From a virus (Duplodnaviria; Heunggongvirae; Uroviricota; Caudoviricetes): a DNA stretch of 18,974 bases. Position 1 is the stretch's first letter. Each line of letters begins with the position of its first letter. The notes under the pieces are model-generated. The model worked only from the letters and a program-made list of their open reading frames with translations, had not been told where the DNA came from and made no database searches. The stretch is from IMG/VR virus record IMGVR_UViG_3300036876_000145, positions 83,489 through 102,462 of that record; one strand, written 5' to 3'. This document shows positions 2,640 to 18,974 of this stretch, piece after piece. Both the position numbers and the translations under genes were made by a program.

Positions 2640-2718
2640 ATTCCGATGGCGTGAGCGGCGAAACCACTTGCCCTACAAGCAAGTATCATCGGGGGTTCGA
2701 GTCCCTCTCGGAATACCA
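2640..2718 (+). tRNA. non-canonical tRNA-like gene; anticodon loop CCUACAA reads as Val-UAC with C33; poorly paired D arm; CCA encoded
   Basis: Acceptor ATTCCGA/TCGGAAT. T arm GGGGG-TTCGAGT-CCCTC, then A73 and CCA. Anticodon stem CTTGC/GCAAG. The D region TGGCGTGAGCGGCGAAACCA offers only a 3-bp TGG/CCA stem. The variable region is 7 nt. Confidence 0.5.
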
Positions 2719-2729
2719 AATTTTAATGT

Positions 2730-2804
2730 GTGGGTGTCGTCCAATGGGAGGACTTTCGGTTTGCACCCGGAGAATGCGAGTTCGAGTCTCGTCACTCTAC
2801 ACCA
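2730..2804 (+). tRNA. tRNA-Ala(UGC) with one bulged nucleotide in the 3' strand of the acceptor stem
   Basis: D arm GTCC-AATGGGA-GGAC. Anticodon arm TTCGG-TTTGCAC-CCGGA. T arm GCGAG-TTCGAGT-CTCGT. The acceptor GTGGGTG pairs with CA(C)TCTAC and keeps G3:U70, A73 and CCA if C2795 is bulged. Confidence 0.7.
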
Positions 2805-2810
2805 AATGTG

Positions 2811-2886
2811 CCGTCCGCGACGGTGATAGATACCAGAAAGCTCTTCGGAGCGCTGGAATGGGGATCAGCCCCTTAGTCATCGCGGC
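2811..2886 (+). ncRNA. tRNA-sized structured spacer made of three hairpins, one capped by C(UUCG)G; not a cloverleaf
   Basis: Hairpins are CCGTC-CGC-GACGG (2811-2823), CCAG..GCTC-TTCG-GAGC..CTGG (2833-2856) and GGGG-ATCAG-CCCC (2860-2872). An alternative end pairing is CCGCGA 2815-2820 with TCGCGG 2880-2885. Confidence 0.3.
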
Positions 2887-2896
2887 TAAATTTATA

Positions 2897-2970
2897 AGCG
2901 GATTAGCCAAGTGGTTAAAGGCATCTGCCTGCAAAGCAGACAAGCACGGGTTCGAATCCCGTATCCGCTT
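2897..2970 (+). tRNA. tRNA-Cys(GCA)
   Basis: Acceptor AGCGGAT/ATCCGCT. D arm GCCA..AGGC with an A13:A22 mismatch. Anticodon loop CTGCAAA (GCA at 2931-2933). T arm ACGGG-TTCGAAT-CCCGT. U73. Confidence 0.9.
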
Positions 2971-2979
2971 CCCAAATTT

Positions 2980-3056
2980 GGGGGTATAGTTCCAACTGGT
3001 AGAACAGCGGCTTGTCGCGCCGATGGTTGCGGGTTCGAATCCCGTTACCCCCGCCA
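2980..3056 (+). tRNA. tRNA-Asp(GUC), CCA encoded
   Basis: Acceptor GGGGGTA/TACCCCC. D arm GTTC-CAACTGGTA-GAAC. Anticodon loop TTGTCGC (GTC at 3014-3016). T arm GCGGG-TTCGAAT-CCCGT. G73 and CCA. Confidence 0.92.
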
Positions 3057-3060
3057 GTTT

Positions 3061-3138
3061 GGTGTGTTGGAGGAGTCTGGTCTTCCTCGCTTCCCTGTCA
3101 CGGAAGATATCACACGGGTTCAAATCCCGTACACACCG
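3061..3138 (+). tRNA. second tRNA-Asp(GUC), with an 11-nt D loop and 7-nt variable region; no encoded CCA
   Basis: Acceptor GGTGTGT/ACACACC. D arm GAGG..CCTC. Anticodon arm CTTCC-CTGTCAC-GGAAG (GTC at 3097-3099). T arm ACGGG-TTCAAAT-CCCGT. G73. Confidence 0.8.
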
Positions 3139-3147
3139 CTTTCGTGA

Positions 3148-3179
3148 CTTCCTGAGTATTAAGTAGAGTACTCAGGAAG
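3148..3179 (+). promoter_or_regulatory. 11-bp hairpin sequestering the GIY-YIG ribosome-binding site
   Basis: CTTCCTGAGTA (3148-3158) pairs perfectly with TACTCAGGAAG (3169-3179). The 3' arm contains the AGGAAG SD, 4 nt before ATG 3184. Confidence 0.55.
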
Positions 3180-3183
3180 GTTC

Positions 3184-3834
3184 ATGATGAAATACACAGT
3201 CTACAAAACTGTGAATCTGGTCAACGGCAAGTTCTACATCGGTGTCCACAAGACGGACAATCCGAATGATGACTACCTTGGTTCTGGGAAGTTCATCAAA
3301 CGAGCCGTTGCGAAGTACGGAGAGCAGAATTTTCGCAAGGAAATTTTGGCTGTCTTTGAAATCCAGAGAGAAGCTTTCGATCTCGAAAAGAAACTCGTGG
3401 TTGAAGCGAAAGTTGATCCACTGTGTTACAACCTGAAAGCTGGCGGTGAAGGTGGGTTTGACTGGATCAATCGTAAGGGATTGAATAACTCGAACGAGAA
3501 CGGCGTGAAAGGAAATCGGGTTACAATTGGAAAAATAAAAACTGACCCAAAGGTAAAGAAGCGATTTACTGACAGGATCAATCGAGTTAGACAGTATCGT
3601 ACTCAAGACTACAAAGCTCGAATTCCTTCGATGTTACAAAAGTGGACAGGACAGCATCATACCGCCGAGACAAAGGCTAGACTTAGCGAAACGCATAAAG
3701 GTAAGAGCAACGGACGCTTTGGAAAACAGTGGATGTATCATCTCGAATCGCAGAGATCAAAGCCTGTCTCACCGGACGAGATCAATAGCCACATTGAACA
3801 AGGTTGGTTGATTGGTCGCCGGATGAAATTTTAG
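3184..3834 (+). CDS. free-standing GIY-YIG homing endonuclease (Seg/I-TevI-like)
   Basis: The N-terminus KYTVYKTVNLVNGKFYIGVHKT...YLGSGK...R...E..E is the classical GIY-YIG motif set. The gene sits between tRNA genes. ATG 3187 is an alternative start. The stop is TAG. Confidence 0.9.
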   Translation: MMKYTVYKTVNLVNGKFYIGVHKTDNPNDDYLGSGKFIKRAVAKYGEQNFRKEILAVFEIQREAFDLEKKLVVEAKVDPLCYNLKAGGEGGFDWINRKGLNNSNENGVKGNRVTIGKIKTDPKVKKRFTDRINRVRQYRTQDYKARIPSMLQKWTGQHHTAETKARLSETHKGKSNGRFGKQWMYHLESQRSKPVSPDEINSHIEQGWLIGRRMKF

Positions 3835-3841
3835 GAGAGAC

Positions 3842-4054
3842 GTGAAGATTCTCTACGATGAACAGCGGCATCTGATCACGGTGCCGTACTCGAAAGAGAA
3901 TCTACATGAAGCAGCGCGGCAGTTGGGTATTAAGCGTTGCTGGTTTCACAAAGACCACTACGACGTTCCTAAGAGAATGATGTCTCGGATGTCGGAGACG
4001 GTAGCAGAAAAAGTTTCGCCGCGTGAAGTTTTGAAGATCGTGCGCGGCAAGTAA
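3842..4054 (+). CDS. DUF4031-family small protein (70 aa)
   Basis: The pattern NLHEAARQLGIKRCWFHKDHYDVP matches my recollection of the DUF4031 signature (ELH.FA..G..R.WF....HYDVP). GTG start with a GGAG SD at 3834-3837. Confidence 0.75.
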   Translation: MKILYDEQRHLITVPYSKENLHEAARQLGIKRCWFHKDHYDVPKRMMSRMSETVAEKVSPREVLKIVRGK

Positions 4055-4058
4055 GTTT

Positions 4059-4135
4059 GGATGGATAGCCAAGTAGGAAAGGCGCTCCCCTGCAAAGGGA
4101 GTCATGCGGGGGTTCAATTCCCTCTCCATCCTCCA
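4059..4135 (+). tRNA. second tRNA-Cys(GCA), CCA encoded
   Basis: Acceptor GGATGGA/TCCATCC. D arm GCCA..AGGC (A13:A22). Anticodon arm CTCCC-CTGCAAA-GGGAG (GCA at 4092-4094). T arm GGGGG-TTCAATT-CCCTC. U73 and CCA. Confidence 0.88.
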
Positions 4136-4137
4136 AA

Positions 4138-4519
4138 TGTACCAGTTCGGGACAACCGCTGGCAGGAAGTTTCTGCGGGAGGGAAAGTTCGGGGCTTCAT
4201 AGAGTACCGTGCGGGGTAACTCCCCGGCGACGGCGCAAGCCGTTGACAATTAGAGCTACAGAGACGAGTCACAGAAGGTGTGCTTGGAAGCGCGTAAGAT
4301 TCACGTCGGTAGTGTTGATGTGAAATGCCCGACCAAGTCCCCTGATGTGGGTGAAACGAGCAATCTTCACGGGAAGCAAGTGCAAATAGGCTGACAGGAA
4401 CTACTCGTTCCGTTATGAATCAGCGGGTAGCATGCTTGAGCGTTGGAGTAATTCAACGCCTAGACGAATGGTTGTCGCCGCGCAAGCGGAACAGAACCCC
4501 GGCTAATAGGACTGGTACA
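4138..4519 (+). ncRNA. rnpB: RNase P RNA, bacterial type A (M1-like), apparently complete
   Basis: P1 4138-4146/4511-4519. P2 4151-4157/4470-4476. P3 4162-4176. CR-I-like GGGAGGGAAAGTTCGGGGCTTCATAGAG at 4177-4204. P8 4212-4226. P9 ACGGC-GCAA-GCCGT at 4230-4243. AAGCAAGTGCAAATAGG at 4374-4390. GGGTAGCATGCTTGAG at 4425-4440. GCCTAGACGAATGG at 4458-4471. AACAGAACCCCGGCTAATAGG at 4490-4510. These align with the recalled E. coli M1 RNA sequence. Confidence 0.9.
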
Positions 4520-4541
4520 AGTTTATGAGTTTTTGAACTAT

Positions 4542-4568
4542 GAGCGACCTATATTAGAGAGGTCGCTC
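4542..4568 (+). promoter_or_regulatory. 8-bp hairpin occluding the SD and GTG start of the HNH gene
   Basis: GAGCGACC (4542-4549) pairs with GGTCGCTC (4561-4568). Wobble and AU pairs extend the stem into GTG 4569-4571. The GAGAGG SD lies at the loop/stem junction. Confidence 0.5.
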
Positions 4569-5006
4569 GTGACAAGTCAAAAAGAAGTTCAAAGACAATT
4601 AGGAATGAGTCGAGGAACCGCCAACTACAGATTGGCGCGTCTTTTACTCTTCAAATACATGCAGCAAGCTGGGGCGGACAACTGTTTTCGCTGCGGTCTA
4701 AAGCTTGAAACGGTTGAAGATTTTAGTATTGAGCATAAAAAACCGTGGTTGTACGCATCCCCAGATTTATATTGGGATTTGGAAAATATTGCTTTTTCGC
4801 ATCGCGCATGTAATTCGGGCGCAGCTAGACAGATCAATAAGACCAAAATGAGTCTTAGATCAGTAGGACCGGAAGGAACAAGTTGGTGTACGGAACATAA
4901 ACAGTTTCTTTCAGTCGATGAATTTCAAAAAAATTCCGCTATTTGGAACGGCTTACAAAGGCAATGCAAAGAATGCCGACAAAAGCGAAATAAAAAGCGG
5001 GCTTAG
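4569..5006 (+). CDS. free-standing HNH homing endonuclease
   Basis: CFRCG...SIEHKKPW...NIAFSHRACN is an HNH motif, and a C-terminal CKEC adds a zinc-finger pair. The ORF is open from TTG 4533, but GTG 4569 has a GAGG SD 6 nt upstream. The TAG stop (5004-5006) lies inside tRNA-Gly. Confidence 0.88.
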   Translation: MTSQKEVQRQLGMSRGTANYRLARLLLFKYMQQAGADNCFRCGLKLETVEDFSIEHKKPWLYASPDLYWDLENIAFSHRACNSGAARQINKTKMSLRSVGPEGTSWCTEHKQFLSVDEFQKNSAIWNGLQRQCKECRQKRNKKRA

Positions 5007-5073
5007 CTCACGCTGGTAGAGCGCTGGTCTTCCAAACCGGAGGTAACGGGATCGTCGCCCGTAGTCCGCTCCA
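4997..5073 (+). tRNA. tRNA-Gly(UCC) with an unusual T loop ATCGTCG (A54/U58 swap); CCA encoded
   Basis: Acceptor GCGGGCT/AGTCCGC. D arm GCTC-ACGCTGGTA-GAGC. Anticodon arm CTGGT-CTTCCAA-ACCGG (TCC at 5031-5033). T stem ACGGG/CCCGT. U73 and CCA. The 5' end overlaps the HNH CDS by 10 nt. Confidence 0.85.
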
Positions 5074-5084
5074 AGTTTAGATAT

Positions 5085-5160
5085 GGCGCACTCTGCTAAC
5101 GGCTAGGCAACCACGTTCTCAGCGTGTGAAATGTGGGTTCAAATCCCGCGTGCGCTACCA
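5085..5160 (+). tRNA. tRNA-Glu(CUC), CCA encoded
   Basis: Acceptor GGCGCAC/GTGCGCT (G1:U72). D arm TGCT-AACGGCTA-GGCA. Anticodon loop TTCTCAG (CTC at 5118-5120). T arm GTGGG-TTCAAAT-CCCGC. A73 and CCA. Confidence 0.85.
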
Positions 5161-5167
5161 GATTTTG

Positions 5168-5222
5168 GCTGACCATGTTCGGCAAGGTCAGCGGTTGGGG
5201 GACATGGCTCAGTACAACCGCT
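5168..5222 (+). other. structured spacer in a tRNA-sized slot: two overlapping hairpins, no cloverleaf
   Basis: GCTGACC (5168-5174) pairs with GGTCAGC (5186-5192). AGCGGTTG (5190-5197) pairs with CAACCGCT (5215-5222). The loop of the second hairpin contains TGGCTCAGT, which resembles a D loop. Confidence 0.25.
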
Positions 5223-5231
5223 GATAACCGT

Positions 5232-5307
5232 GGGGCTATGGCGCAGTTGGGAGCGCGTAATCATGGCATGATTAAGGCCGTCGGTTCGAACCCGACTAGC
5301 TCCACCA
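5232..5307 (+). tRNA. tRNA-Ala(GGC), CCA encoded
   Basis: Acceptor GGGGCTA/TAGCTCC with G3:U70. D arm GCGC-AGTTGGGA-GCGC. Anticodon loop ATGGCAT (GGC at 5265-5267). T arm GTCGG-TTCGAAC-CCGAC. A73 and CCA. Confidence 0.93.
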
Positions 5308-5313
5308 GATTTT

Positions 5314-5388
5314 GCGGAAGTAGTTCAGCGGTAGAATATTTCCTTGCCAAGGAAGGGGTCGCGGGTTCAAATCCCGCCTTCCGCTCCA
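5314..5388 (+). tRNA. tRNA-Gly(GCC), CCA encoded
   Basis: Acceptor GCGGAAG/CTTCCGC. Anticodon loop TTGCCAA (GCC at 5346-5348). T arm GCGGG-TTCAAAT-CCCGC. U73 and CCA. Confidence 0.92.
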
Positions 5389-5399
5389 AGTTTAGAAGT

Positions 5400-5461
5400 T
5401 CATGGATGCCTAGATGTCGGTGGCTAACCGAAAGGTCGCGGGTTCAATGTCCGTTCCATGT
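5400..5461 (+). ncRNA. 62-nt truncated tRNA-like RNA with normal acceptor and T arms but no normal D-plus-anticodon region
   Basis: Acceptor CATGGA/TCCATG. T arm GCGGG-TTCAATG-TCCGT. The interior is only 31 nt and folds in one of two ways. Fold 1 is GCC-11 nt-GGC plus ACC-GAAA-GGT. Fold 2 is TCGGT-GGCTA-ACCGA with no D arm. It abuts the next tRNA with no spacer. Confidence 0.4.
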
Positions 5462-5537
5462 GGGGCTATAGCGCAGTTGGGAGCGCGTCTCGTTCGCAAC
5501 GAGAAGGTCGTGAGTTCGAATCTCACTAGCTCCACCA
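5462..5537 (+). tRNA. tRNA-Ala(CGC), CCA encoded
   Basis: Acceptor and D arm are nearly identical to Ala(GGC), with G3:U70. Anticodon loop TTCGCAA (CGC at 5495-5497). T arm GTGAG-TTCGAAT-CTCAC. A73 and CCA. Confidence 0.93.
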
Positions 5538-5544
5538 AGTTATT

Positions 5545-5617
5545 GCGGGTGTAGTTCAATGGTAGAATATTCGGTTCCCAACCGAAAGATTTGTCGGTTC
5601 GAGTCCGACCATCCGCT
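5545..5617 (+). tRNA. tRNA-Gly(CCC)
   Basis: Acceptor GCGGGTG/CATCCGC. D arm GTTC-AATGGTA-GAAT. Anticodon loop TTCCCAA (CCC at 5577-5579). T arm GTCGG-TTCGAGT-CCGAC. U73. CCA is not fully encoded. Confidence 0.88.
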
Positions 5618-5624
5618 CCGTTTT

Positions 5625-5768
5625 ATGAGAGAGTGTCCAAAGTGCGGTAAGAAAGAACAATGGGAAATCGGTTGGATTTCTACTACCAATGAATGGCGCT
5701 GGCATTGTCTGTCTTGTGATATTCGTTTTAATGATGATGGCGTAATTTACACACCAGAAAAAGTTTAG
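5625..5768 (+). CDS. 47-aa zinc-ribbon protein (MRECPKCGKKEQWEIGWISTTNEWRWHCLSCDIRFNDDGVIYTPEKV)
   Basis: A CPKC...CLSC pair of Cys knuckles. The track ORF 5559-5768 begins inside tRNA-Gly, so ATG 5625 is the first start outside it. No clear SD. Confidence 0.55.
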   Translation: MRECPKCGKKEQWEIGWISTTNEWRWHCLSCDIRFNDDGVIYTPEKV

Positions 5769-5787
5769 GGCCGTGGGACTGCATTGG

Positions 5788-5815
5788 GGTGGTTCGAATC
5801 TCACTAGCTCCACCA
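5788..5815 (+). pseudogene. orphan 3' fragment of tRNA-Ala (T loop, acceptor 3' strand and CCA)
   Basis: 5792-5819 is a perfect 28-nt copy of 5514-5541, the 3' end of tRNA-Ala(CGC) plus its spacer. No matching 5' half or cloverleaf lies upstream. Confidence 0.6.
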
Positions 5816-5822
5816 AGTTTAC

Positions 5823-5926
5823 GTAGGCTTCCGAGGGATACCTCGGTGACAGTTGTTCTGAGGTCATCTCTTCATGAGGGGCTGAACAGGGAACGGCAGC
5901 GTGGGGAAACCCACAAGCCTACACCA
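5823..5926 (+). ncRNA. 104-nt tRNA-shaped RNA of unrecognised family: 8-bp acceptor-like stem plus A-CCA, SelC-like 6-bp/4-nt D arm, long anticodon-like arm with loop CUUCAUG, and a GAAA-capped T-arm substitute
   Basis: GTAGGCTT (5823-5830) pairs with AAGCCTAC (5915-5922), then A and CCA. D arm CCGAGG-GATA-CCTCGG at 5831-5846. TGTTC 5854-5858 pairs with GAACA 5884-5888, stacked on an imperfect stem 5862-5869/5877-5883 with loop 5870-5876. GTGGG-GAAA-CCCAC at 5901-5914. The flanking spacers match those of real tRNAs in the array. Confidence 0.5.
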
Positions 5927-5929
5927 TTT

Positions 5930-6005
5930 GCGCTGTTAGATTAGCGGTAAAATCGTCACCATGACAAGGTGAAAATCGGGGGTTCGATTCCCTCACGGCG
6001 CACCA
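5930..6005 (+). tRNA. tRNA-Val(GAC), CCA encoded
   Basis: Acceptor GCGCTGT/ACGGCGC. D arm GATT-AGCGGTAA-AATC. Anticodon loop ATGACAA (GAC at 5963-5965). T arm GGGGG-TTCGATT-CCCTC. A73 and CCA. Confidence 0.92.
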
Positions 6006-6017
6006 GTTTTTAAATAT

Positions 6018-6095
6018 GGCGTTGTCTTCTAAATGGTCTAGGAAAACTGACTTTCAATCAGTGGAATGCCGGTTCAACTCCGGTCAACGCTACCA
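6018..6095 (+). tRNA. tRNA-Glu(UUC), CCA encoded
   Basis: Acceptor GGCGTTG/CAACGCT (G1:U72). Anticodon arm ACTGA-CTTTCAA-TCAGT (TTC at 6053-6055). T arm GCCGG-TTCAACT-CCGGT. A73 and CCA. Confidence 0.85.
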
Positions 6096-6102
6096 GAATT
6101 GA

Positions 6103-6177
6103 GAGGGAGTAGCTCAGCGGTAGAGCAGAATATTGCCAATATTCAGGTCGCGGGTTCAACTCCCGTCTCCCTCTCCA
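6103..6177 (+). tRNA. second tRNA-Gly(GCC), CCA encoded
   Basis: Acceptor GAGGGAG/CTCCCTC. D arm GCTC-AGCGGTA-GAGC. Anticodon loop TTGCCAA (GCC at 6135-6137). T arm GCGGG-TTCAACT-CCCGT. U73 and CCA. Confidence 0.92.
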
Positions 6178-6226
6178 ACATTTATGCGAATCTATTCAAA
6201 AGTTTATTTTCGCTTTATGGTGTGTT

Positions 6227-6382
6227 ATGAGAAAACTAAAGAGACTAAGCAAGGTCAAACTCGTGAAGGAAATGTCCAGGGAGAGGGTGCCAGTCCCCGC
6301 GACCCGCAAGATTGAAAATAAGAAAAAGAAATTTTTGCGTTACTTAGAAACACATTGGCAGGAAGATGAATTGGGGGTATAG
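6227..6382 (+). CDS. 51-aa highly basic ORF (MRKLKRLSKVKLVKEMSRERVPVPATRKIENKKKKFLRYLETHWQEDELGV), hypothetical
   Basis: Own translation; below the track cutoff. The stop TAG (6380-6382) lies inside the next tRNA-Ala. No clear SD. A 43-codon alternative frame starting at ATG 6184 looks less protein-like. Confidence 0.3.
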   Translation: MRKLKRLSKVKLVKEMSRERVPVPATRKIENKKKKFLRYLETHWQEDELGV

Positions 6383-6448
6383 CTCAGCTGGGAGAGCGCA
6401 TCGTTTGCAACGATGAGGTCGTCGGTTCGATCCCGTCTACCTCCACCA
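6373..6448 (+). tRNA. tRNA-Ala(UGC), CCA encoded
   Basis: Acceptor GGGGGTA/TACCTCC with G3:U70. D arm GCTC-AGCTGGGA-GAGC. Anticodon loop TTTGCAA (TGC at 6406-6408). T arm GTCGG-TTCGATC-CCGTC with one U:U mismatch. A73 and CCA. Confidence 0.9.
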
Positions 6449-7070: not shown

Positions 7071-7073
7071 CTT

Positions 7074-7766
7074 ATGCCAAAAATAGTTTTTATTTCAGAT
7101 ACTCATGGGTTACACGGTCAGATGCAGGTGCCCGAAGGAGATATTTTAGTTCATGCTGGAGATATGACTAATGTAGGGCGTATAAATGAAGTTGCTGCCT
7201 TGGGCGTATGGCTCCGTGAAATGGAAAAACGTTTTAAATTTATCGTGATCGTCGCGGGTAATCACGATTGGCTTTTTCAGAAAAATAGAGCCTTGGCTGA
7301 AAGCCTGATAAATCAAGGTACAATGGGAGAAGCTACGGGTAAAATCATCTATTTACAAGATAGTGGAGTTACAATTGATGGCTTAAAAATACATGGAAGT
7401 CCTCAAACTCCTTGGTTTTTTGATTGGGCCTTTAATGTACGCCGAGGAGAACTTAAGCCCTATTGGGATAAGATCCCTGAAGGTCTGGACATATTAATTA
7501 CTCACGGTCCTCCCAGTGGTATACTGGATCAAGCAGACCCTCATTTAGGCAGTGAACATGTAGGCTGTGAAGAACTTATGGAAGCGGTGGAGCGCACCAA
7601 ACCAAAAATCCATGTATTCGGACATATACATGGCGGGTATGGTAAAATGGAACATGTGAATACCACATTTATCAATGCTTCAATTTGCGATGAACGGTAC
7701 AAACCGATTAACGCCCCTTGGGTTATTGATATGGAGCCCCGTGATACACATGGCGAAGAAAAATAA
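7074..7766 (+). CDS. calcineurin-like metallophosphoesterase
   Basis: The motif series ISDTHG, HAGDMTN, VAGNHD, ITHGPP and VFGHIHG. Confidence 0.92.
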   Translation: MPKIVFISDTHGLHGQMQVPEGDILVHAGDMTNVGRINEVAALGVWLREMEKRFKFIVIVAGNHDWLFQKNRALAESLINQGTMGEATGKIIYLQDSGVTIDGLKIHGSPQTPWFFDWAFNVRRGELKPYWDKIPEGLDILITHGPPSGILDQADPHLGSEHVGCEELMEAVERTKPKIHVFGHIHGGYGKMEHVNTTFINASICDERYKPINAPWVIDMEPRDTHGEEK

Positions 7767-7938
7767 GCTACCTTCGGCGGCTTTATTGTTAAAAACTTTG
7801 GCTGGTGTAATGGCTATGGGATTACCTTACAAAAAAGGAATCTGTATATCTTGTGGGGTAACAGAAAGTAAAAAACATCACACTGACTGCTACTATCTAG
7901 ACGCTTTGAATTTGATAGTGAAATATTATAAGCCATGA
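7750..7938 (+). CDS. hypothetical 62-aa protein (MAKKNKLPSAALLLKTLAGVMAMGLPYKKGICISCGV...)
   Basis: This is the in-frame internal ATG of track ORF 7675-7938. It overlaps the phosphoesterase 3' end by 17 nt. No SD, so the call is weak. Confidence 0.4.
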   Translation: MAKKNKLPSAALLLKTLAGVMAMGLPYKKGICISCGVTESKKHHTDCYYLDALNLIVKYYKP

Positions 7939-7956
7939 ACGGTAGTTGAGGAGCGC

Positions 7957-7978
7957 AATCCCAGACTTTTAGTCTGGG
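7957..7978. repeat. hairpin repeat copy 1 (AATCCCAGACT-ttt-AGTCTGGG)
   Basis: The 8-bp perfect stem 7960-7967/7971-7978 sits 21 nt after the stop of the upstream ORF. A near-identical copy lies at 8180-8201. Confidence 0.7.
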
Positions 7979-8014
7979 CTAGCGAATGCCTTTGACTTTA
8001 GAAAGGAGGACACA

Positions 8015-9770: not shown

Positions 9771-12347
9771 ATGTCATCGCCAACTAAAGTAGTTATATTC
9801 AATCCCACATCCACTCTTTTTGATATTGTAAATGGAGTTGATGGCGTTATTGTTCCTTCCAGTGGCGCTGCTTCGGCTGGTATTCCTGTAGTACTGAATC
9901 CTAATGGTGTTATTGATCCTAGTCTTACAAGCAGTGGTGTATCCGCATTGGTTAACTCATTTACTGGATTATCTAGTGGTAATTTGGTGACTTTGTACAT
10001 AAGTGGTGGTGTGTTAGTTATGCAGCCATCTACTGCATCTCCCACTGGACACGGAGTAAATGCTCCTGAACCTCCCAACGGCTGGTATTCTCCCGCGTTA
10101 GGGTTTGTTGATGCCTCTTACAATTATGGGGTAACCGGCACTGTATATTTTTCAGGTAGTTTTAAGTACACAGACACAATCGGGGAGTTTACGGCTAATA
10201 GTGTAGGCGATGTTGTATGGCTAGCGGATTCCGGAGACGGCTTGCACAGCCCAGGCGCTATCACACTCACAACCCCAGCAAGTCAATCATCACCACCATA
10301 CTCACCTTTAAGACAGTCTGTGGGACTGGTCACTAACTATGTGGGTGGAGTAGTAACCGTAAGTTTTAACCCATCGTTTCCAAATTCTGGCATAGGAACT
10401 GTTACAAGTGTAGGTTTAGCTGTACCTTCATGGCTGACTATAAGCAGTGCTAGTAATCCAATTATTTATAATGGCACTTTTACCATCGCTTCGGCACTTG
10501 GATTAGCAGCGAATCAAGTACTCGCAACACCTATCTCTGGCACTGGCATTTTGAGTCCTAGATTATTGGTAGCTAAAGATATTCCAGGTGTTTCAGGAGT
10601 AACTGTAAGCAGCACACCTCCAACTACAAATCAAATTCTCGTAGCTACCAGTGGAACTACCGCTACATGGCAAACTTTTTCAACAGGCTCGGGCACTGTA
10701 AACTCTGGAACTGGGGGACAACTTGCTTTTTATTCCGCTACTGGAACTACAGTATCAGGTAACGCCAATGTTACAGCATCTGTTGGTACTCTTACTTTGG
10801 GGGTGCCCGGATCGGTTGTAGGGTCGATAATATTAGGTCAGTCAAATGCTTTCACAACCATTATAACCGGTGCGGCAACATCTAATTGGACTATGACCTT
10901 GCCTCCGACGGCCGGAACATCAGGGCAACAATTACAAACTAATGGATCGGGTGTAACCACTTGGGTGACACCATCTACCACACAAAACGCACAAACTGGA
11001 ACTTCGTATTTATTCGCAAATTCCGATAACGGCAAATATATATCTTTTAAAAATACATCCGCTGTAACCGTTACTATCCCACAAGCCGGAGCGTCAAGTC
11101 AATTTTTAAGTGGGTGGTATTGCTTCATGCAAAATTTAGGTATAGGACAAGTAACAGTTGTTCCAACTATATCTACTATCAATACTTTTCCCAATATAAT
11201 TTTAGGTACATTCCAATCAGCTATGATTGTATCTGACGGAACCAATTATGAATGTACATTTACGAAAATAGTAAGTACAGATTATTATAATTCTATTAGT
11301 GCGTACCTGCAAAATGATGCCTCTGTTACTGAAGCTCAAAACCAAATCGTAATGCAGGATTTTTCAGTCGGGGGAAACAACCTAAAACGAAAAGGTTTGA
11401 ATATATTTTTAGAAACGAATGCTCAAATGGCAGCAACAAATTATGATGGGTTGCAGGTTAATGTGGGGGCTACGATTGCTTCCAATACTTCCGCATCCGC
11501 GGGACCTGTGGAAGCTGCTGAATTTTCAATATTTGCCTCTGGTTCTGCTGTTACATTACCCCAAATTAATGGTGTAAAAATTCGCACTAATGTACAAGCA
11601 AGTACGGCAGTCCAGAATGTAGTAGGGCTGAATTTTTACTTACCTGAAGTGTTTGGAACAGTAACAAATTATATCGGAATCTATATGGATTCCCCAACTG
11701 GCGGTGGGGTTATAGGCACATCTATAGGCGTAACAGCAGGATTAACACTTAATAATTTAAGTGCAGTTACAAATGAAATTGGATTGATTGCTTATGGAGC
11801 ATCGACCCCATCCACTTATGGGTACGGGATTTTGTCCACCGGTAAAACAGCCGGTATAGTTGCGAATGATCAAACAGTGGTGGGAAGTTTTATCGGACAC
11901 GGCGGAACATTTTCTTCTTACCCTATTGTTTTGCATGATGGTTGGTATGGAGGTACGGGAAGTCCTGAGGGGTCTCTTACCGCAGCTGTGGGATCAATGT
12001 TCTCTCGACAGGATAGCACCATTGGAGATTCTTTTTATGTAAAAACTTCAGGATCAGGAAATACTGGTTGGTCTCCAAGTTCAACTGTGGGACCCATTAA
12101 AACTGTGCTATCGACTTATTCTGTCACGAATTCTGATTCTACCATTAACTGTACAGGAACTTTTACAGTTACTTTACCTATTACAGGTATCGCGGTAGGA
12201 AAGAAATTTCGTGTTAAAAATATAGGGGTAGGTACAATCACAATTTCTTCAACTGCTAACATAGATTTTACAACATCTATATCTTTAACTATACAAGGTC
12301 AGGGTATAGAAGTGCAATGGGATGGCACACAGTATTGGTTGTACTAA
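9771..12347 (+). CDS. tail fibre protein (858 aa from ATG 9771; ORF open from 9741)
   Basis: The composition is G/T/S/A/V/N-rich and beta-rich. Fibre motifs include GTVTSVGLAVPSWL...NQVLATP..G....PR.L...DIP and GQQLQTNGSGVTTW. ATG 9771 follows the upstream stop and a TAAGGA SD. Confidence 0.9.
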   Translation: MSSPTKVVIFNPTSTLFDIVNGVDGVIVPSSGAASAGIPVVLNPNGVIDPSLTSSGVSALVNSFTGLSSGNLVTLYISGGVLVMQPSTASPTGHGVNAPEPPNGWYSPALGFVDASYNYGVTGTVYFSGSFKYTDTIGEFTANSVGDVVWLADSGDGLHSPGAITLTTPASQSSPPYSPLRQSVGLVTNYVGGVVTVSFNPSFPNSGIGTVTSVGLAVPSWLTISSASNPIIYNGTFTIASALGLAANQVLATPISGTGILSPRLLVAKDIPGVSGVTVSSTPPTTNQILVATSGTTATWQTFSTGSGTVNSGTGGQLAFYSATGTTVSGNANVTASVGTLTLGVPGSVVGSIILGQSNAFTTIITGAATSNWTMTLPPTAGTSGQQLQTNGSGVTTWVTPSTTQNAQTGTSYLFANSDNGKYISFKNTSAVTVTIPQAGASSQFLSGWYCFMQNLGIGQVTVVPTISTINTFPNIILGTFQSAMIVSDGTNYECTFTKIVSTDYYNSISAYLQNDASVTEAQNQIVMQDFSVGGNNLKRKGLNIFLETNAQMAATNYDGLQVNVGATIASNTSASAGPVEAAEFSIFASGSAVTLPQINGVKIRTNVQASTAVQNVVGLNFYLPEVFGTVTNYIGIYMDSPTGGGVIGTSIGVTAGLTLNNLSAVTNEIGLIAYGASTPSTYGYGILSTGKTAGIVANDQTVVGSFIGHGGTFSSYPIVLHDGWYGGTGSPEGSLTAAVGSMFSRQDSTIGDSFYVKTSGSGNTGWSPSSTVGPIKTVLSTYSVTNSDSTINCTGTFTVTLPITGIAVGKKFRVKNIGVGTITISSTANIDFTTSISLTIQGQGIEVQWDGTQYWLY

Positions 12348-12356
12348 GGAAAATAA

Positions 12357-15300
12357 ATGTCTTTTAATTATCCACAAGCTCAAAACGCATTATCACTACA
12401 AGGAAATACTGTAGCTTCTACCACCCCAACTGCGGGGCAAGTACTGGTTTGGAATGGAAGCCAGTGGCAACCCGGAGCAGGAGCATCGGGGGCTAATTAT
12501 AATGTTGTTTATTCCAGTGATTACAACTGGAGTTTGAATTATCAAGCAGGGTGGGGGGCTCTTACGGCTGGTGTGCCAGCTACTTTAACTTTAGCAACCT
12601 GCCCTGTAGGAGTTGACACAAGCGCATCTACTATTTTAGGTGGCCCACAAGGGGCCTATTCGATTTATATCTCCGGATCAGACGGAATAGCGGAGGTTGT
12701 TAAAATTACAGGAGGTACTTGTACTCCTGGTATGACAAATGGGACAATACAATTTATTCCAGCTAATAATCATACTGTATCTGGCGGTAGTCCTCCAACT
12801 GGTTATACTTTAAGTTCAGCAACCGCTGGAATCCAAGAAGCAATCAATACAGCTTGCGGTACAAGTCAAACTTACTACGATAACTCTAACTGTAAAGTGG
12901 TTATTCCTCCATCAGGGGAATTGAGTGGAATGAATGGATACAATATTTATGACACAATCTACTTCCATTCAAATCAAAGTATCCTCAGTGGGTATGGAGC
13001 AACATTAAATCATTATGGAAGAGGCCCATGCCTACAGTTAGGAAATCTACTCAGTTCGAACGATTATGTGAGCAATAGAATAGAAGGTATGATGTTTCGG
13101 GCTCCTGTTTACCAGACAGCAACTGGAACTCTTAACACAAATGGCACAGCTGTGGTAACAGCTGCCGGAATCAGTAAATTCGGCACAAACTGGGCGTCTG
13201 GGTCTAACATATTAATTAATGGAACTGCCTACACGATCGCATTTGTCAACAGCAACACTCAAATAACATTGACAACCACAATTTTAACAGCATCAGGTTT
13301 ATCTTATGCTTATCAAGCGTACTCTGGGTCTTTAATTACAAGCACTCAAAGAACGAACGGGGTTACTACAATTACCACCAGCGAACCCCACGGGTTTGTA
13401 ACTGGGGATCGCGTAACTCAAATGCTGACCGATAATTCAGCTTTTTGGGGGGATGTTCCTTACATAACAGTTACTAGTCCAACTACCTATACATATGGAC
13501 GCTGGCTAAATGGGAATTCCGCAAGTAATATTACTGCAACTTCTATCACATCGAATGTCCTTACGATAATGGCGAATAATAGCTTTACTGTAGGGGAAAA
13601 TGTTCTTTTAGCGGGGACATCTGAAAGTTATCTTAACAATAAAGTAGTGACAGTCGCAAGTTTATTGGGGGCTAGCGGTTCTCCCCCAACATATACAGGA
13701 TTTACAGCGAACTTCACCGCAACTAACTATTCTAACCCATCAGAGCCGTCTACCGCTGAAGCTTACCCACCAGTAGGTAATATCGCTCTTCAAACCACAC
13801 CGGGGGTGGTTGCTCTTACTTATGTAGCGATATTAGATAACGCTGGAGGCAGTCAATTAGTGGATATTAGTTCTGCAAATGCTTATCAAGAATATTATTT
13901 CAATCATTTTTTTGACCTTTGGGATGACGAGTGCTGTACAATAAAGTCTTTCAATAATAACGCTGGATCCTTACAAAATAATGTAAACTGGACAGGATCT
14001 TTTATATGGTCTGGGGGAGCCTCCGGTTTACCTTTAGCTGCCAATCAACTAGCCCCTGTCATTACCCTTAAAGATTCTAATATTACGGCCAATTGCTCGA
14101 ATGGTGTTACAGTCTATAACTCCAACGGAGTTTATATTCATGATACAGTTCTGCAAGCAACCGGACCTTGGCAGGTGTATACGTCTAATGCCACAGGTAA
14201 CTATCAAGGGGCCCACTTGGAAAATTTGTATTCTGAATCTTCCGCTAGCTCCAATCCAGCCTCCCCTGTTCGTAGCCCCTATGCAGGCTGTGGTATTGCA
14301 GGAGCAATTTTTGGGCCAAGCACGGGAGCGGCTTCTTTTAGAATTAAAGGAACGGGGGTTGAAGGGCAACTTCCAACTGTAGGTGCAGGTGCAACATCCT
14401 ATCTCTATTATGTAGTAATTAATGATACAACAACGGGCACATCATCTGCCCCTCTGCCTGTAATGATTGCGAATTCCAACGGAGGGGCAGTTACAGTTTC
14501 TTGGCCACGAGTATCAAATGGAACAGATTCTATTACATATGATGTATTGCGTGTTTCTCCGAATACATTAGGAAGTATATCAAATATCGGTCCTTACACT
14601 GGAGGTTGTCCTGGTGGGGTTACACAATCACCCCCTAGTGTTAGCACAATGGGAAGTGTAGTGACTGGGCAAGCTCAACAATCTGGCTTTATTCAGACTT
14701 TTGTGGATAATACTACAGTTCCCACATCAAATTATCCTACAGTGCCGATCGGGAGTTATCAAGGTAATATTTTGTTCTGGCCTGGACAAGCGATTACTGT
14801 AGGAATAACCCCTATTATCAGCGACAATATTGTTAATGTTTATAGTACAGGGGCGTGTGGAAGTCCGACAAATATTTGTTTATATCCAGGACACGGAAGT
14901 GGTGCGGCACCAGCTATATCGGCATCTACCGCTACTAGTTTCGCTTTAAACGATTTATATGAACAACAAGCTCTTATTTTAAATGATGGCTGGTATCAAG
15001 GACCACAAACAGCAAATCTTAAAGGACGTTTGCAATTTGCCTCATCTGGGTTAGCTTTCCCGGGAGAGGTTAATAACGGACATATTATTACTTTAGTGGA
15101 TTCTGATCCTCAATTGACCAGGGCTTACGCATTAAATCGTCCACCCAATTCATCTTCTGATTGTTTCATTGGAATTGACGGTATTGGTCCATATTACGCT
15201 AATGTAGCTCCAATTGCTATAGGCTCTCCAGTTTCTATTAGTCATTATATAGCAAACATTGGTGACGGTACGAATTGGAAAGAACGATTAACATCATCAG

Positions 15301-16226
15301 TTAAACAGTTCAAAGTTCCTGTACAACTAGAGTCAGTAACATTTGCTACTTTACCATCATCCCCAGCGAATGGCATGGAAGTATATTGTTCTGATTGTAC
15401 TTTTGGATCAAACCCCTGTACAGGTAGTGGCACAGGATCTTTTGCATATCGAGTTAATGGCGCGTGGGTTTGTAGCGATTCGAGTGGGTCCGGTGGAGTA
15501 AACGCCACTAATTCACCATCACAATATGCTGTAACTACTTGGGTAAACAGCACTACTATTGAAGGCATTGCGCCATCTTCTACAAGTGGGTATCCTTTAT
15601 TATCTAATGGTTCATCTGCGTATGCTTCTTTTGGGCAACTCTCAGTCGGAGCAATTAGTGCCACGGGCACACCGTCTTCCACCACTTATTTGAGGGGAGA
15701 TGGTAGCTGGGCTACTGTATCTGGTAGTGGGACAGTTACTTCTGTAGCGATGACCGTACCAGCCTGGTTATCCGTGAGCGGGTCTCCTATAACCGGCACT
15801 GGTACGCTTGCCATCACTTCAGCGGGGAGTTTGACCCAAAACTGGGTCTTAGCTACTCCTAATGGCAGCAGCGGTGTATTAGCTCCTCGTGCCTTGGTAG
15901 CGGCGGACATTCCAACTTTAGGAGTAAGTACCGTTAGTTTTTCAGCAACGCCAATTTTCAACGCTACTGGTTATAGCGGATTCAAAATAACTCTGACCGG
16001 TAATGTTACCAGCTCCACATTCACAAATGGGACGGCAGGAAGTCTTTACACTTTTGAGATCACGCAGGACGGAACAGGTGGTCGGACATTTGTCTGGCCC
16101 GCTAATTTTAAAGGCGGCGCAAGTGTGACAGATCAGGCCGCAGGATCCAACGAGACAATAGCACAGTTATTTTATTTTGACGGCAGCAATGCACTTGCTG
16201 TTGGTCCAGGAATGGTGACCCCATAA
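12357..16226 (+). CDS. large tail fibre / tailspike-like protein, 1289 aa
   Basis: The N-terminus [15 protein letters not shown] is typical of fibres. The C-terminal module [30 protein letters not shown]...[25 protein letters not shown] is shared with the upstream gene. AAGGAAA SD. Confidence 0.92.
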
Positions 16227-18974
16227 TGTCAATTCGCATTTACTTTCTCGCTTTAATTATTGCACTAACATCTTTGGCTGGTGCGCAAAATATTACCGGT
16301 AACAGTTTGACACTCTCGCCTACTTTGACCGTAGGTACACTTCCATCAGCAGCAACCAATAAGGGGCGCACGTTTTCTATCAGTGACGGATTAAATTCTA
16401 CCGACTGTACTGTTGGCGGAGGAACTAACCATGTATGGTGCTGGTCAAATGGAACTATCTACGCAGTGCCGTTTGGGTCGGCAGCAGGGGGCGTCACTTC
16501 CATTAATACCGTAGCCGGGGCGTTTACATTCAGCGGACCTGGGGTAACTTGTACAAGCACGGCTTGCACATTTTCCGGTACAGGAGTATCTTCTGTTTCG
16601 AACAGCGATGGAACTCTGACGATATCTCCCAACACAGGAGCAGTCGCAGTTTCGCTTGCTTTAAGTCATGCTAACACATGGACAAATCAGACGATTGACG
16701 GGGTGACCCCAACCACTTTTGGCTTCGTCGATCCCACGTCTAGTATTCAGACGCAGTTGAATGCCAAGGCTAACTCCAGCGTGACTACTCTTTCTTCGTT
16801 GATTGCGGCTGCTGGGGGTACGTTTGGGACGTGTGCGTTTGTGAATACTTGTGGTTCGGGAGGAACGTATAGCGCGGTTACTTCTCCGATTACGGCATCT
16901 AGCAGCACGCTCCAGTTTTCCGCGTCTCTGCTGAACTACGGTGGCAACGGAAATGGGACTTCAGACAACTCCACGGCCATGACTTCAGCGTGCGCCGCGA
17001 ACTCAGAAGTCTGGTTGCCTGCTGGGGCGTATGCGTTCACATCGAACTATGCCGTGTCGTGCGGGCTTCACTTCGGCGCTGGGGCAACGCTTGTAGCCCC
17101 GACTGGAGTAACGGTTACAGTCAATGGCAAGATCGACGCTCCCACTGTGCCAATATTTACTGTAGCTGGAACCGGGAAGTTTCTTATCGGTCCAGGAACT
17201 CCTGTCGATTACGCGGAGTGGTTTGGAGCGAAGGGCGATAACTCAACCGACGATACAATTCCTATCACATCCTGCGCCAACAATTTTACCAAATCAGGGT
17301 TGTGCCAGCTTCTTGGGAAGTCCTATAAAACAACAAACGTCATCATTCTTAGCACCAGCTATACAGGGCTGATAGGAGTAGATTCGGGGCAGACACAAGG
17401 GCCACAGCCCACTGGTTCGGGATACTCCCAGATCAATAACAATAGCGCTACATCGGACATCATCGACATAAGCGGGAGTGGGATTTTGCCTTACGGTGTA
17501 ACGGTGAAAAACCTTACCTTGGCCAAATCCGTTGCAGCCACAAACGCAGGTGCGAATGGGCTATATCTGGGAACTGGGTTCTGGCATTTTGTTGATAACA
17601 TCAATATTTGGGACGCGCCCAATGGAGTGACTGTCGGTGCCTCTGCTACCGTGATAGTGACGAACGTCAACGTCAACTGGTCCTCTCTCTGTTGCTCAGT
17701 GCCCGTCGTAGGGTTCAACTTGAACGGACCTTCGAATGTCTTCTCTAATATCTTCGCAGAGAGGGAAGGTTCCAGTGCGAGTGCCACCGGTTTTGCAATG
17801 GCAGCGGGAGGTACCGGACTGAGCGACGTATGGGTGAATAACGCTCAGGCTGATTTCGTCGGGACAGGGTTCTTGATCGACGTAACTGCGTGTGTGGCCG
17901 CTGATCCTAGCAACGAATGTGCAACGGACATTCACATTACCAATCCTATTATCAATGTGAGCAATACAGGGTTTAGTTTTGTGAACTTGAACTCGGCCAC
18001 TGGTCCCCAAGGGCCGTCAGTCGATATCGTCGGGGGTTCGTTCCTGGAAAGCTCCGGTAACGCGTTTACCTTCACTAACTCCACCACAGGGTACAACATC
18101 GAGCACTTTAACAGTCAGGCAGGTGGTGTTAACACTTTCATCAATCGGACCATGCCGTCTGCGTTCTTCTCCATACCAGTATGTAGCGCGAGCTATGAAG
18201 GGTCGTATGAATCGTTTAATGATTCCGCGACGAATACACAAGGAGCAACGATCACGGGCAGCGGAACGAATCATGTGCTCGGGTACTGCAACGGAACGAA
18301 CTGGGTAGTAGCCTCGGGGAGCGGCAGTGGGAGCAGCGGACTATCTGGCATGACAGCTACACAGATCCCGATTGCTGCCTCATCCTCGACCGTAACTAGT
18401 TCCGTACCAGCACCCACAGGCACAATTGTAGGGACAACCGATACCCAAACTCTCACGAATAAGACATTGGACGGTGTATCCCCAACAACATTTGGATATG
18501 TTGACCCTACTTCCAGTATCCAGACGCAGTTGAACGCCAAGCAAGGGACGCTCACAGGCACCGGGTTGGCTCGCAACACCGGAGCATCCTCGGAACTGAG
18601 CGGCGACTGCGCCACCAGCGGATCAAACGCTATCGTCTGTACGAAGACGAACGGGACGGCTTTCGGCACTGGAGCTACGGCTACCATCGCCAACTACGCC
18701 CTGCTGACCGGAGCGACCTTCAGTGGTGCGATCTCCGCCGCCGGGATCACGAACTCATCCGTATCCAGCGCCGGTTGTGCGACGTTCAGTTCTGGTGGAG
18801 TTCTGACCAGCACAGGAACGGCTTGCGGTAGCGGATCTGGTGGCGATACGATCACATCACCCAACAGCACGCTTTCCGTGGGTGGAACTTCTGCGGCAAC
18901 AACGCTCGATCTCAACCTTGGCCACGCGAACACCTGGACGGCGACTCAGACTTTTCCGAATGGGTCGATCACGT
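16226..18974 (+). CDS. tailspike/depolymerase-like protein with pectate-lyase-type (right-handed beta-helix) motifs; 3' end beyond the window (at least 916 codons)
   Basis: Not in the ORF track because it has no stop in the window. I checked every TAA, TAG and TGA from 16226 to 18974 and none is in this frame. The ATG overlaps the upstream TAA (TAATG). Motifs include [18 protein letters not shown], a tailspike N-cap-like motif, and a repeated DGV(T/S)PTTFG(F/Y)[14 protein letters not shown]. Confidence 0.88.

Follow-up and report, generated by a model that had tools for sequence, protein, structure and literature searches.

Tail fibres and tailspikes determine phage host range. The beta-helix tailspikes, those of P22, Sf6, CBA120 (TSP2/3), phiAB6 and APK together with phi29 gp12 and the K1F endosialidase N-terminal extension, have a central right-handed helix with a GxxGDGxTDD cap motif, and tail-fibre genes are mosaics through recombination at conserved linkers, as is familiar from T-even gp37/38, lambdoid stf and P2 H. 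Here we analyse ORF3, the third of three giant Ser/Thr/Gly-rich, fibre-like open reading frames (ORFs) clustered in an 18,974-nucleotide stretch of phage DNA (positions 83,489 to 102,462 of IMG/VR record IMGVR_UViG_3300036876_000145, Caudoviricetes; hereafter the window, in whose own coordinates positions are given unless another contig is named). Its predicted product likewise has such a helix at its centre, and it resembles the tailspike depolymerases in its placement within a fibre cluster, in a modular build with exchangeable distal parts, and in its structural and profile matches. However, it differs from them in a Sec-type signal peptide and ten close cysteine pairs, in reaching no Pfam or PHROG threshold, and in that its helix is internal, with about 700 more stalk residues behind it. 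The locus also follows the mosaic principle in keeping the proximal part and swapping a distal specificity module at short conserved segments, with the differences that donor and recipient lie about 15% apart in GC content and that an internal helix-plus-knob cassette is swapped rather than just the tip.

Fold and mosaicism are ordinary for phage receptor-binding proteins; a Sec signal on fibre- and tailspike-like proteins across many environmental phage contigs is something we did not find described, and the sharing of this signal by many phage-borne relatives is the most interesting point of our analysis. Secreted or lipoprotein 'moron' genes do stand beside receptor-binding genes, as exemplified by lambda lom, T5 llp and cor, and ORF3 resembles them in being a signal-peptide gene of foreign base composition that adjoins fibre genes. 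Their products, however, are small outer-membrane proteins or lipoproteins without fibre or tailspike architecture. A further parallel is the Q-rule, the presence of Gln at position +1 of signal peptides in Bacteroidetes (PMC5837995, PMC10653852), which extends to secreted proteins of unknown function encoded by Porphyromonas gingivalis phages (PMC10367356). ORF3 and 33 of its 60 relatives with signal peptides share with these the AxA-Gln context and the phage origin, but the P. gingivalis phage proteins are not described as fibre-like, and the host of the ORF3 phage is probably not a member of the Bacteroidota.

ORF3 belongs to a real gene, about 1,380 codons long, and covers its first two-thirds from the 5' end. 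Its frame is stop-free over 916 codons from 16226 to the window end, and the same gene is called at 1,380 amino acids (aa) in a sister contig, L047, of 95 kb from ENA. The initial annotation had rightly pointed out this giant ORF as missing from the program-made ORF list, the overrun of the window end being the sole reason, and also the TAATG overlap, in which the ATG (16226-16228) has one base in common with the stop codon of ORF2 (16224-16226). Since the frame has a stop at 16178-16180 and no ATG, GTG or TTG between it and 16226, the signal-peptide-like N-terminus cannot be escaped by assuming an upstream start. With its coupled start directly behind two fibre-like ORFs, the gene is placed as a virion fibre gene would be. 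Its N-terminus, in turn, has the anatomy of a Sec signal peptide cleaved by signal peptidase I (SPI): a positively charged n-region, MSIR, a hydrophobic core of 13 residues (mean Kyte-Doolittle value 2.5), and small residues at -3 and -1, in the sequence AGA ahead of Gln. Of the two readings first offered for it, signal peptide or membrane anchor, the former stands and the latter falls, as the core is too short for an anchor. A virion tailspike would be cytoplasmic and carry no export signal; ORF3 has the canonical anatomy of one.

Is this merely an oddity of one gene, as had been supposed? Many phage-borne relatives argue otherwise. Their N-termini are unrelated to that of ORF3 and cannot be aligned with it, and yet they start in the same manner, for example with MRTIRSLALLLILAPIMAWG followed by QS, MLLRRFAFVILACLALGPPVFS followed by QS, or MKKLVLLSLVLIASSCAFA followed by QG. 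On the same viral contigs, our crude caller found a signal peptide in 8 of 36 fibre-like ORFs, as against 15 of 288 other ORFs (Fisher p=0.0015). A bias towards even cysteine numbers is a classical mark of folding in an oxidising compartment, and the mature part has an even count in 44 of the 60 signal-peptide relatives (p=4e-4), compared with 42 of the 86 cysteine-containing relatives that lack a signal peptide. ORF3 itself has 20 cysteines, and in its L047 variant the vicinal pair 489/490 is lost together. As the relatives mostly have Gln at +1 and show this even-cysteine bias, real export of ORF3-like proteins is favoured, and we consider it probable; for ORF3, Sec export, cleavage before Gln21 and disulfide formation would follow. 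The only look at a C-terminal sorting domain of the type IX secretion system was at precomputed matches, of which no relative had one. Phage contigs of 51-61% GC (relatives P0002-P0032, L004, L006, L009 and L063-L065) often encode proteins whose signal peptides have Gln at +1, and a Q-rule may, to go by these sequences, exist outside the Bacteroidota.

The signal-peptide relatives lie on phage contigs with baseplate, portal or terminase genes, some of them directly behind baseplate wedge or tail-fibre genes, and often two to five signal-peptide genes follow one another there, their starts overlapping. In two cases, L006 and L009, paralogous signal-peptide proteins have a common mature N-terminus, as in multi-tailspike phages.

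The centre of the chain behind the signal peptide is, by profile matches, AlphaFold2 modelling and fold searches, predicted to be a right-handed beta-helix of the phage-tailspike type and of the pectate-lyase superfamily. An exhaustive search returned 1,542 relatives of ORF3 aa 186-705. For the fold search, a family profile was built from 38 aligned relatives of the centre; against the PDB it matched ORF18 of Geobacillus virus E2 (7chu, E=1e-18), the epimerase AlgE6 (3e-17) and GH55 (6.5e-16), and further rhamnogalacturonase A, CBA120 TSP3, the phiAB6 tailspike, phi29 gp12 and other AlgE epimerases, with values for 7chu, AlgE, GH55 and rhamnogalacturonase A that span 1e-9 to 1e-18. A phmmer search of PDB sequences with ORF3 itself gave no match. 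Among the 38 aligned relatives, 17 match PF12708 and 14 match PF13229; PF12218 was also matched. The model of the centre is all-beta, with a predicted template modelling score of 0.80 and a predicted local distance difference test score (pLDDT) above 90 for 275 residues, mostly above 90 across model residues 45-440. Its significant Foldseek matches in the PDB and BFVD are exclusively beta-helix enzymes, adhesins or tailspikes; among the viral models there are 189, the best of which is annotated as a pectate-lyase-superfamily protein of an uncultured phage.

Both GxxGDxxxDxT-type motifs of the initial annotation are present, and their reading as signs of a pectate-lyase-fold tailspike is borne out. 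Their attribution to a GH55-like enzyme is not: the GH55 beta-1,3-glucanases (5m5z, 3eqn) have a duplicated cap motif in common with ORF3, but the alignment is confined to profile positions 171-295, where this short motif lies, and the model has one helix instead of the two from which GH55 enzymes are built, so that we reject membership. From the fold alone we infer a depolymerase activity, and the helix may bind and cleave polysaccharide. Compared with L047, the window protein is 88% identical over 1,179 residues, with both ends identical and the helix interior diverged. At the nucleotide (nt) level, a helix-internal block of about 300 nt is too diverged for blastn between flanks that are 95-99.5% identical; sequence comparison marks this block as locally hypervariable, on the surface that putatively binds.

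The second ordinary feature, mosaicism, is unusually legible here. The jump from AT-rich to GC-rich sequence that had been noted is real and clearest in the GC content of third codon positions (GC3), which is 0.28 in ORF1, 0.30 in ORF2 and 0.54 in ORF3. The rise begins ahead of ORF3: GC3 is already 0.41-0.45 across the final ~200 codons of ORF2, stays in this range for the opening ~200 of ORF3 and reaches 0.50-0.63 further on. Within ORF3, it is 0.41 for aa 1-116, 0.55 for aa 117-696 and 0.60 for aa 697-916. At the 3' end of ORF2 (15600-16225), GC3 is up to 0.41-0.42 before ORF3 begins, and ORF2 may likewise have acquired its tip as a module. A high-GC donor fits the GC3 step in ORF3. Over 16673-18334 the window has 99.5% nt identity to a phage contig of 57% GC (L003, IMGVR_UViG_3300036717_000014), on which portal-like, capsid and GIY-YIG genes are also present. 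On either side L003 differs, with another N-terminal part of 383 aa and another C-terminal continuation. In L003, a GIY-YIG endonuclease-like ORF (7072-8004) separates the gene for the major capsid protein from the region of the fibre gene, recalling the homing-endonuclease-like ORFs in the tRNA array of the window.

The junctions lie within linkers. A three-way nucleotide comparison places the left crossover in a zone, 16673-16794, that encodes a conserved linker and is near-identical in the window, in L003 and in a shorter, 629-aa allele (P0001 type). The right junction with L003 falls at 18334/18335, inside a GSGSGS linker. For the 629-aa allele, divergence sets in at 16795, the opposite edge of the same left linker, and everything after 16794 is replaced. 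The backbone that carries these alleles is more than 99.5% identical in many public assemblies, on contigs as long as 108 kb. The 629-aa allele is present in five sister contigs (L046, L048-L051), which are identical to the window up to 16794; the long allele is found in the window, in L047 and in L052 from JGI, which shows 99.95% identity to the window up to its own contig end at window position 17246. The cassette of L047 is a diverged version, with 94-95% nt identity and the divergent block described above. Thus, the claim of a recently acquired foreign distal module on a native N-terminus holds for the module, which is foreign and recent by its identity to the L003 cassette and its two alleles, but less well for the N-terminus, which is of intermediate composition and bears the same kind of signal peptide as foreign relatives. 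On these sequences, a recent cassette exchange by recombination at conserved joints is what the locus records, and this exchange, together with the architecture of ORF3, we regard as highly probable. The conserved linker and the Gly/Ser linkers would serve as joints for homologous recombination that move whole specificity cassettes between unrelated phages, and the cassettes would alternate within one phage population, changing the surface polysaccharide that is recognised.

The modules that flank the helix recur in short pieces. A direct repeat (16682-16768 and 18455-18541) has 77% nt identity and 26 of 32 aa identical (81%, E=5e-15), and HANTWT occurs at 16667 and 18923. The motif copies that were first noted, DGV(T/S)PTTFG(F/Y) and HANTWT, are therefore where they were said to be. 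The proposed reiteration of a ~590-aa unit is rejected, however, as self-comparison shows no more to recur on both sides of a single helix than a linker motif of 32 aa, a stalk of ~70 aa (44% identity) and a knob of ~55 aa (35%, E=2e-4). As the second knob is the extreme C-terminus in many relatives, the ORF3 protein resembles a tailspike module to whose rear a further fibre has been joined. In the distal part of the long allele (L047, 20500-20570), AFPLTVSGTVNSGGIPYFNSTTQ is a conserved fibre motif with 72-90% aa identity in the unrelated JGI contigs L055-L059, and a degenerate-pattern scan of JGI metagenomes for the end of the gene returned only other genes with the common mobile fibre motif. 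Towards the same end, a look-up of ORF2 yielded no more than a contig of 5.4 kb, and ORF1 from its TTG start had no record.

How could such a protein work? We propose that the ORF3 chain would be translated by coupling to ORF2, exported via Sec and cleaved by SPI, exposing Gln21, and that it would fold with disulfides outside the cytoplasm. The mature protein would be a receptor-binding and depolymerising fibre that joins virions after the holin has opened the inner membrane. Its modules would follow in the order signal peptide (aa 1-20), cysteine-paired knob, linker, beta-helix (aa ~230-625), second knob and long second stalk, the helix being the part that would bind, and probably cut, surface polysaccharide. 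As the best explanation overall, we give this exported, modular, tailspike-like fibre that joins virions a probability of about 0.5. Taken by itself, the virion destination of the exported protein is tentative, with the odds slightly against it; it is favoured by the tail-fibre position of such genes, which take up as much as ~10 kb per genome, by the long stalks and by the common mature N-termini in L006 and L009. That the tail fibres or tailspikes of widespread soil and peat phages, with a host possibly among the Terriglobales, are in general exported by Sec, have a Gln N-terminus and periplasmic disulfides, and are attached after holin opening appears rather unlikely.

Several points weigh against the proposed fibre. 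The signal-peptide calls come from our own crude rule script for n-, h- and c-regions together with comparative patterns, not from SignalP, and ORF2, which lacks a signal peptide, also has 17 cysteines. The mature N-terminus of ORF3, where a virion-docking domain would be sought, is not a recognisable virion anchor but a knob of the type usual at distal ends; it resembles internal or C-terminal knobs of relatives and is weakly similar (35%) to the second knob of ORF3. The sequence of ORF3 itself gave no Pfam match at E<=0.1, nor its centre at E<=0.001, and passed no PHROG or NCBIfam threshold; no catalytic residues were identified in the helix. The comparison with the L047 protein covers 1,179 of 1,380 residues, up to the last ~200 codons. 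In the phages with the 629-aa allele, the two GC-rich signal-peptide genes next to it suggest an island of secreted cargo more than components of the virion. Finally, we know of no Sec-exported tailed-phage fibre, and the literature yielded no report of Sec signal peptides on tail fibres, the retrieved work concerning endolysins or contractile-injection-system cargo, for which reason the prior for the virion route is low.

The main rival, possible if doubtful, is that ORF3 is exported without ever joining a virion, as a tailspike-derived enzyme or adhesin that cuts or masks nascent surface polysaccharide in the envelope or periplasm of a cell under infection or lysogeny. Its role would then be receptor destruction, superinfection exclusion or an aid to progeny release, and its gene would belong to an acquired island of secreted-protein genes. 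Such an island is suggested by the phages with the 629-aa allele, in which ORF2 is followed by GC-rich sequence with a row of three signal-peptide genes (629, 1,228 and 104 aa) and only then by native AT-rich genes. That ORF1 and ORF2, fibre genes of native composition, have no signal peptides, that ORF3 has no recognisable virion anchor, and that periplasmic beta-helix enzymes of the AlgG type are among the profile matches all point the same way, as do the secreted Gln+1 proteins of P. gingivalis phages (PMC10367356) and the lom, llp and cor genes mentioned above. These precedents are small, however, whereas ORF3-like proteins have 500-1,800 aa and long stalks. The genes of L006 fill about 10 kb directly behind baseplate genes, the usual place of tail fibres, its paralogues with a common mature N-terminal domain resemble docking adaptors, and ORF3 is translationally coupled to ORF2. 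For neither course, an exported tailspike joining virions or one acting free in the envelope, did we find a precedent.

A conventional virion tailspike made in the cytoplasm would account for the position in the fibre cluster, the tailspike fold and the fibre motifs; its hydrophobic N-terminus would then be a helix buried for attachment, or a false positive of the kind that predictors give, and signal-peptide calls on phage structural (capsid) proteins are sometimes deemed artefacts (PMC10367356). This reading is improbable, as a buried helix has no need of what the unrelated N-termini preserve, namely the full n/h/c pattern, small residues at -3 and -1 and Gln at +1, and as the even-cysteine bias is confined to the signal-peptide group. 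An assembly chimera of AT-rich and GC-rich phages through their common ~120-nt linker, to which one might be led by a join inside a segment common to three sequence types and by an independent contig (L001) that ends in it at 16705, can be dismissed, since the junction recurs in three independent assemblies, those of L047 and L052 being from other samples, and since the diverged cassette of L047 is not what L003-like reads would yield.

The coordinates of ORF3, of its parts and of the two preceding fibre-like genes are collected in the table.

Table. Features of ORF3 and its neighbours in the window
Feature	Position	Strand	Basis or remark
ORF3, first 916 codons of a ~1,380-codon gene that runs off the window	16226..18974	+	open frame; same gene called at 1,380 aa in L047
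Predicted Sec/SPI-type signal peptide, aa 1-20; AGA before cleavage, then QN	16226..16285	+	n/h/c anatomy script; same kind of N-terminus in relatives
Mature N-terminal part, aa 21-116, small knob, Cys pairs 61/72 and 109/114, GC3 0.41	16286..16573	+	aligns with an internal segment of P0018, weakly with the aa 640-697 knob
Stalk/linker 1 with HANTWT and conserved linker motif	16574..16795	+	motif present in dozens of fibre proteins
Exchanged cassette	16673..18334	+	8 mismatches in 1,662 nt (99.5%), none after 17041, against L003
Predicted right-handed parallel beta-helix, pectate-lyase superfamily, aa ~230-625	16913..18100	+	AlphaFold2 model, profile matches, Foldseek, PF12708 in 17/38 relatives
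First cap motif	16937..16975	+	profile positions ~58-117, matching rhamnogalacturonase A and phi29 gp12
Second cap motif, start of main helix	17222..17257	+	profile position 171 onward, where most PDB matches begin
Most divergent helix patch between window and L047 variant of the long allele	17563..17869	+	protein differences concentrated at aa ~365-655
Second small Cys-paired knob, aa ~640-697, then GSGSGS linker	18143..18316	+	C-terminal in many relatives; low AlphaFold2 confidence here
Second stalk, aa 704-916, GC3 0.60, with repeat copy 2 and second HANTWT	18335..18974	+	runs on for ~460 more codons in L047
ORF2, 1,289-aa fibre-like protein without signal peptide, translationally coupled to ORF3	12357..16226	+	weak precomputed match to PF26209 (Phage_phiTE_241_C)
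ORF1, fibre-like protein without signal peptide	9771..12347	+	858 aa from ATG 9771 (as called in sister contigs); 868 aa from TTG 9741

Direct scans of ORF1, ORF2 and ORF3 with Pfam, PHROGs and NCBIfam gave nothing useful, and tblastn and megablast searches against 50,697 GenBank phages gave no match. ORF1 (aa 216-344; 10386-10772) and ORF2 (aa 1122-1246; 15720-16094) have a 133-aa segment in common at 45% identity, with the pattern VTSVGL.VP.WL...LATP.G..G...R.LV..DIP; this segment, found again in P0007, is another mobile fibre motif. With genes for a DNA methyltransferase, a metallophosphoesterase and an HhH protein, and with 16 tRNA genes and interspersed GIY-YIG and HNH ORFs, the window seems to come from a large environmental phage rich in tRNA genes. 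All but two genes of the tRNA array (2640-6448) serve GNN codon families (Val x2, Ala x4, Asp x2, Glu x2, Gly x4), the two exceptions being tRNA-Cys genes; the endonuclease-like ORFs in it lie at 3184-3834 (GIY-YIG) and 4533-5006 (HNH).

The methyltransferase gene (898-2124) is compositionally foreign (GC 0.54, GC3 0.61). Its product is 84-85% identical to proteins on large bacterial contigs, including 84% to one from a Terriglobales metagenome-assembled genome (MAG), a similarity that can be taken as a hint about the host or the gene donor. Together with the Shine-Dalgarno motifs upstream of most native genes of this phage, it is the reason why we think the host is probably not one of the Bacteroidota. 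A scan of GTDB genomes for the host returned no more than a single irrelevant 48-aa motif match in a Bacteriovoracaceae MAG.

Downstream of the 629-aa allele in another contig, L060, the GC-rich stretch (11877-15877) encodes the 1,228-aa protein, which starts with MRLLLIFALLSAVAHG followed by A and has Ig-like or chitobiase-C-like repeats by eye, and the 104-aa protein, which starts with MKFVIFLILTAVAVA followed by QK; native AT-rich genes (GC3 ~0.3) come afterwards. Further on (19954-21408), a 484-aa protein of native composition ends in a hydrophobic tail and has precomputed matches to Glyco_transf_7C (weak, in Pfam) and Sulfotransfer_4. Were the phage to have its own enzyme for modifying surface glycans, this would bear on the receptor story.

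What does the locus mean for these phages? On one level, it is an unusually clean natural transfer of a specificity cassette between unrelated phages, with 99.5% nt identity across a GC gap of about 15%, precise linker junctions and two alleles within a single population. Weightier than this transfer is that many phage-borne fibre- and tailspike-like proteins with real-looking secretion signals have been brought to light. If the exported proteins are virion parts, the textbook cytoplasmic assembly of tailed phages needs an exception; the proposed route would be the first extracytoplasmic maturation of a tailed-phage receptor-binding protein, and ORF3 would be such a fibre, seen while its cassette is being exchanged. 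If they are not, what phages send into the host envelope are giant enzymes derived from tailspikes, a form of host-surface remodelling not described before. The Gln+1 pattern in phages of a seemingly non-Bacteroidota host would, moreover, widen the reach of the Q-rule.

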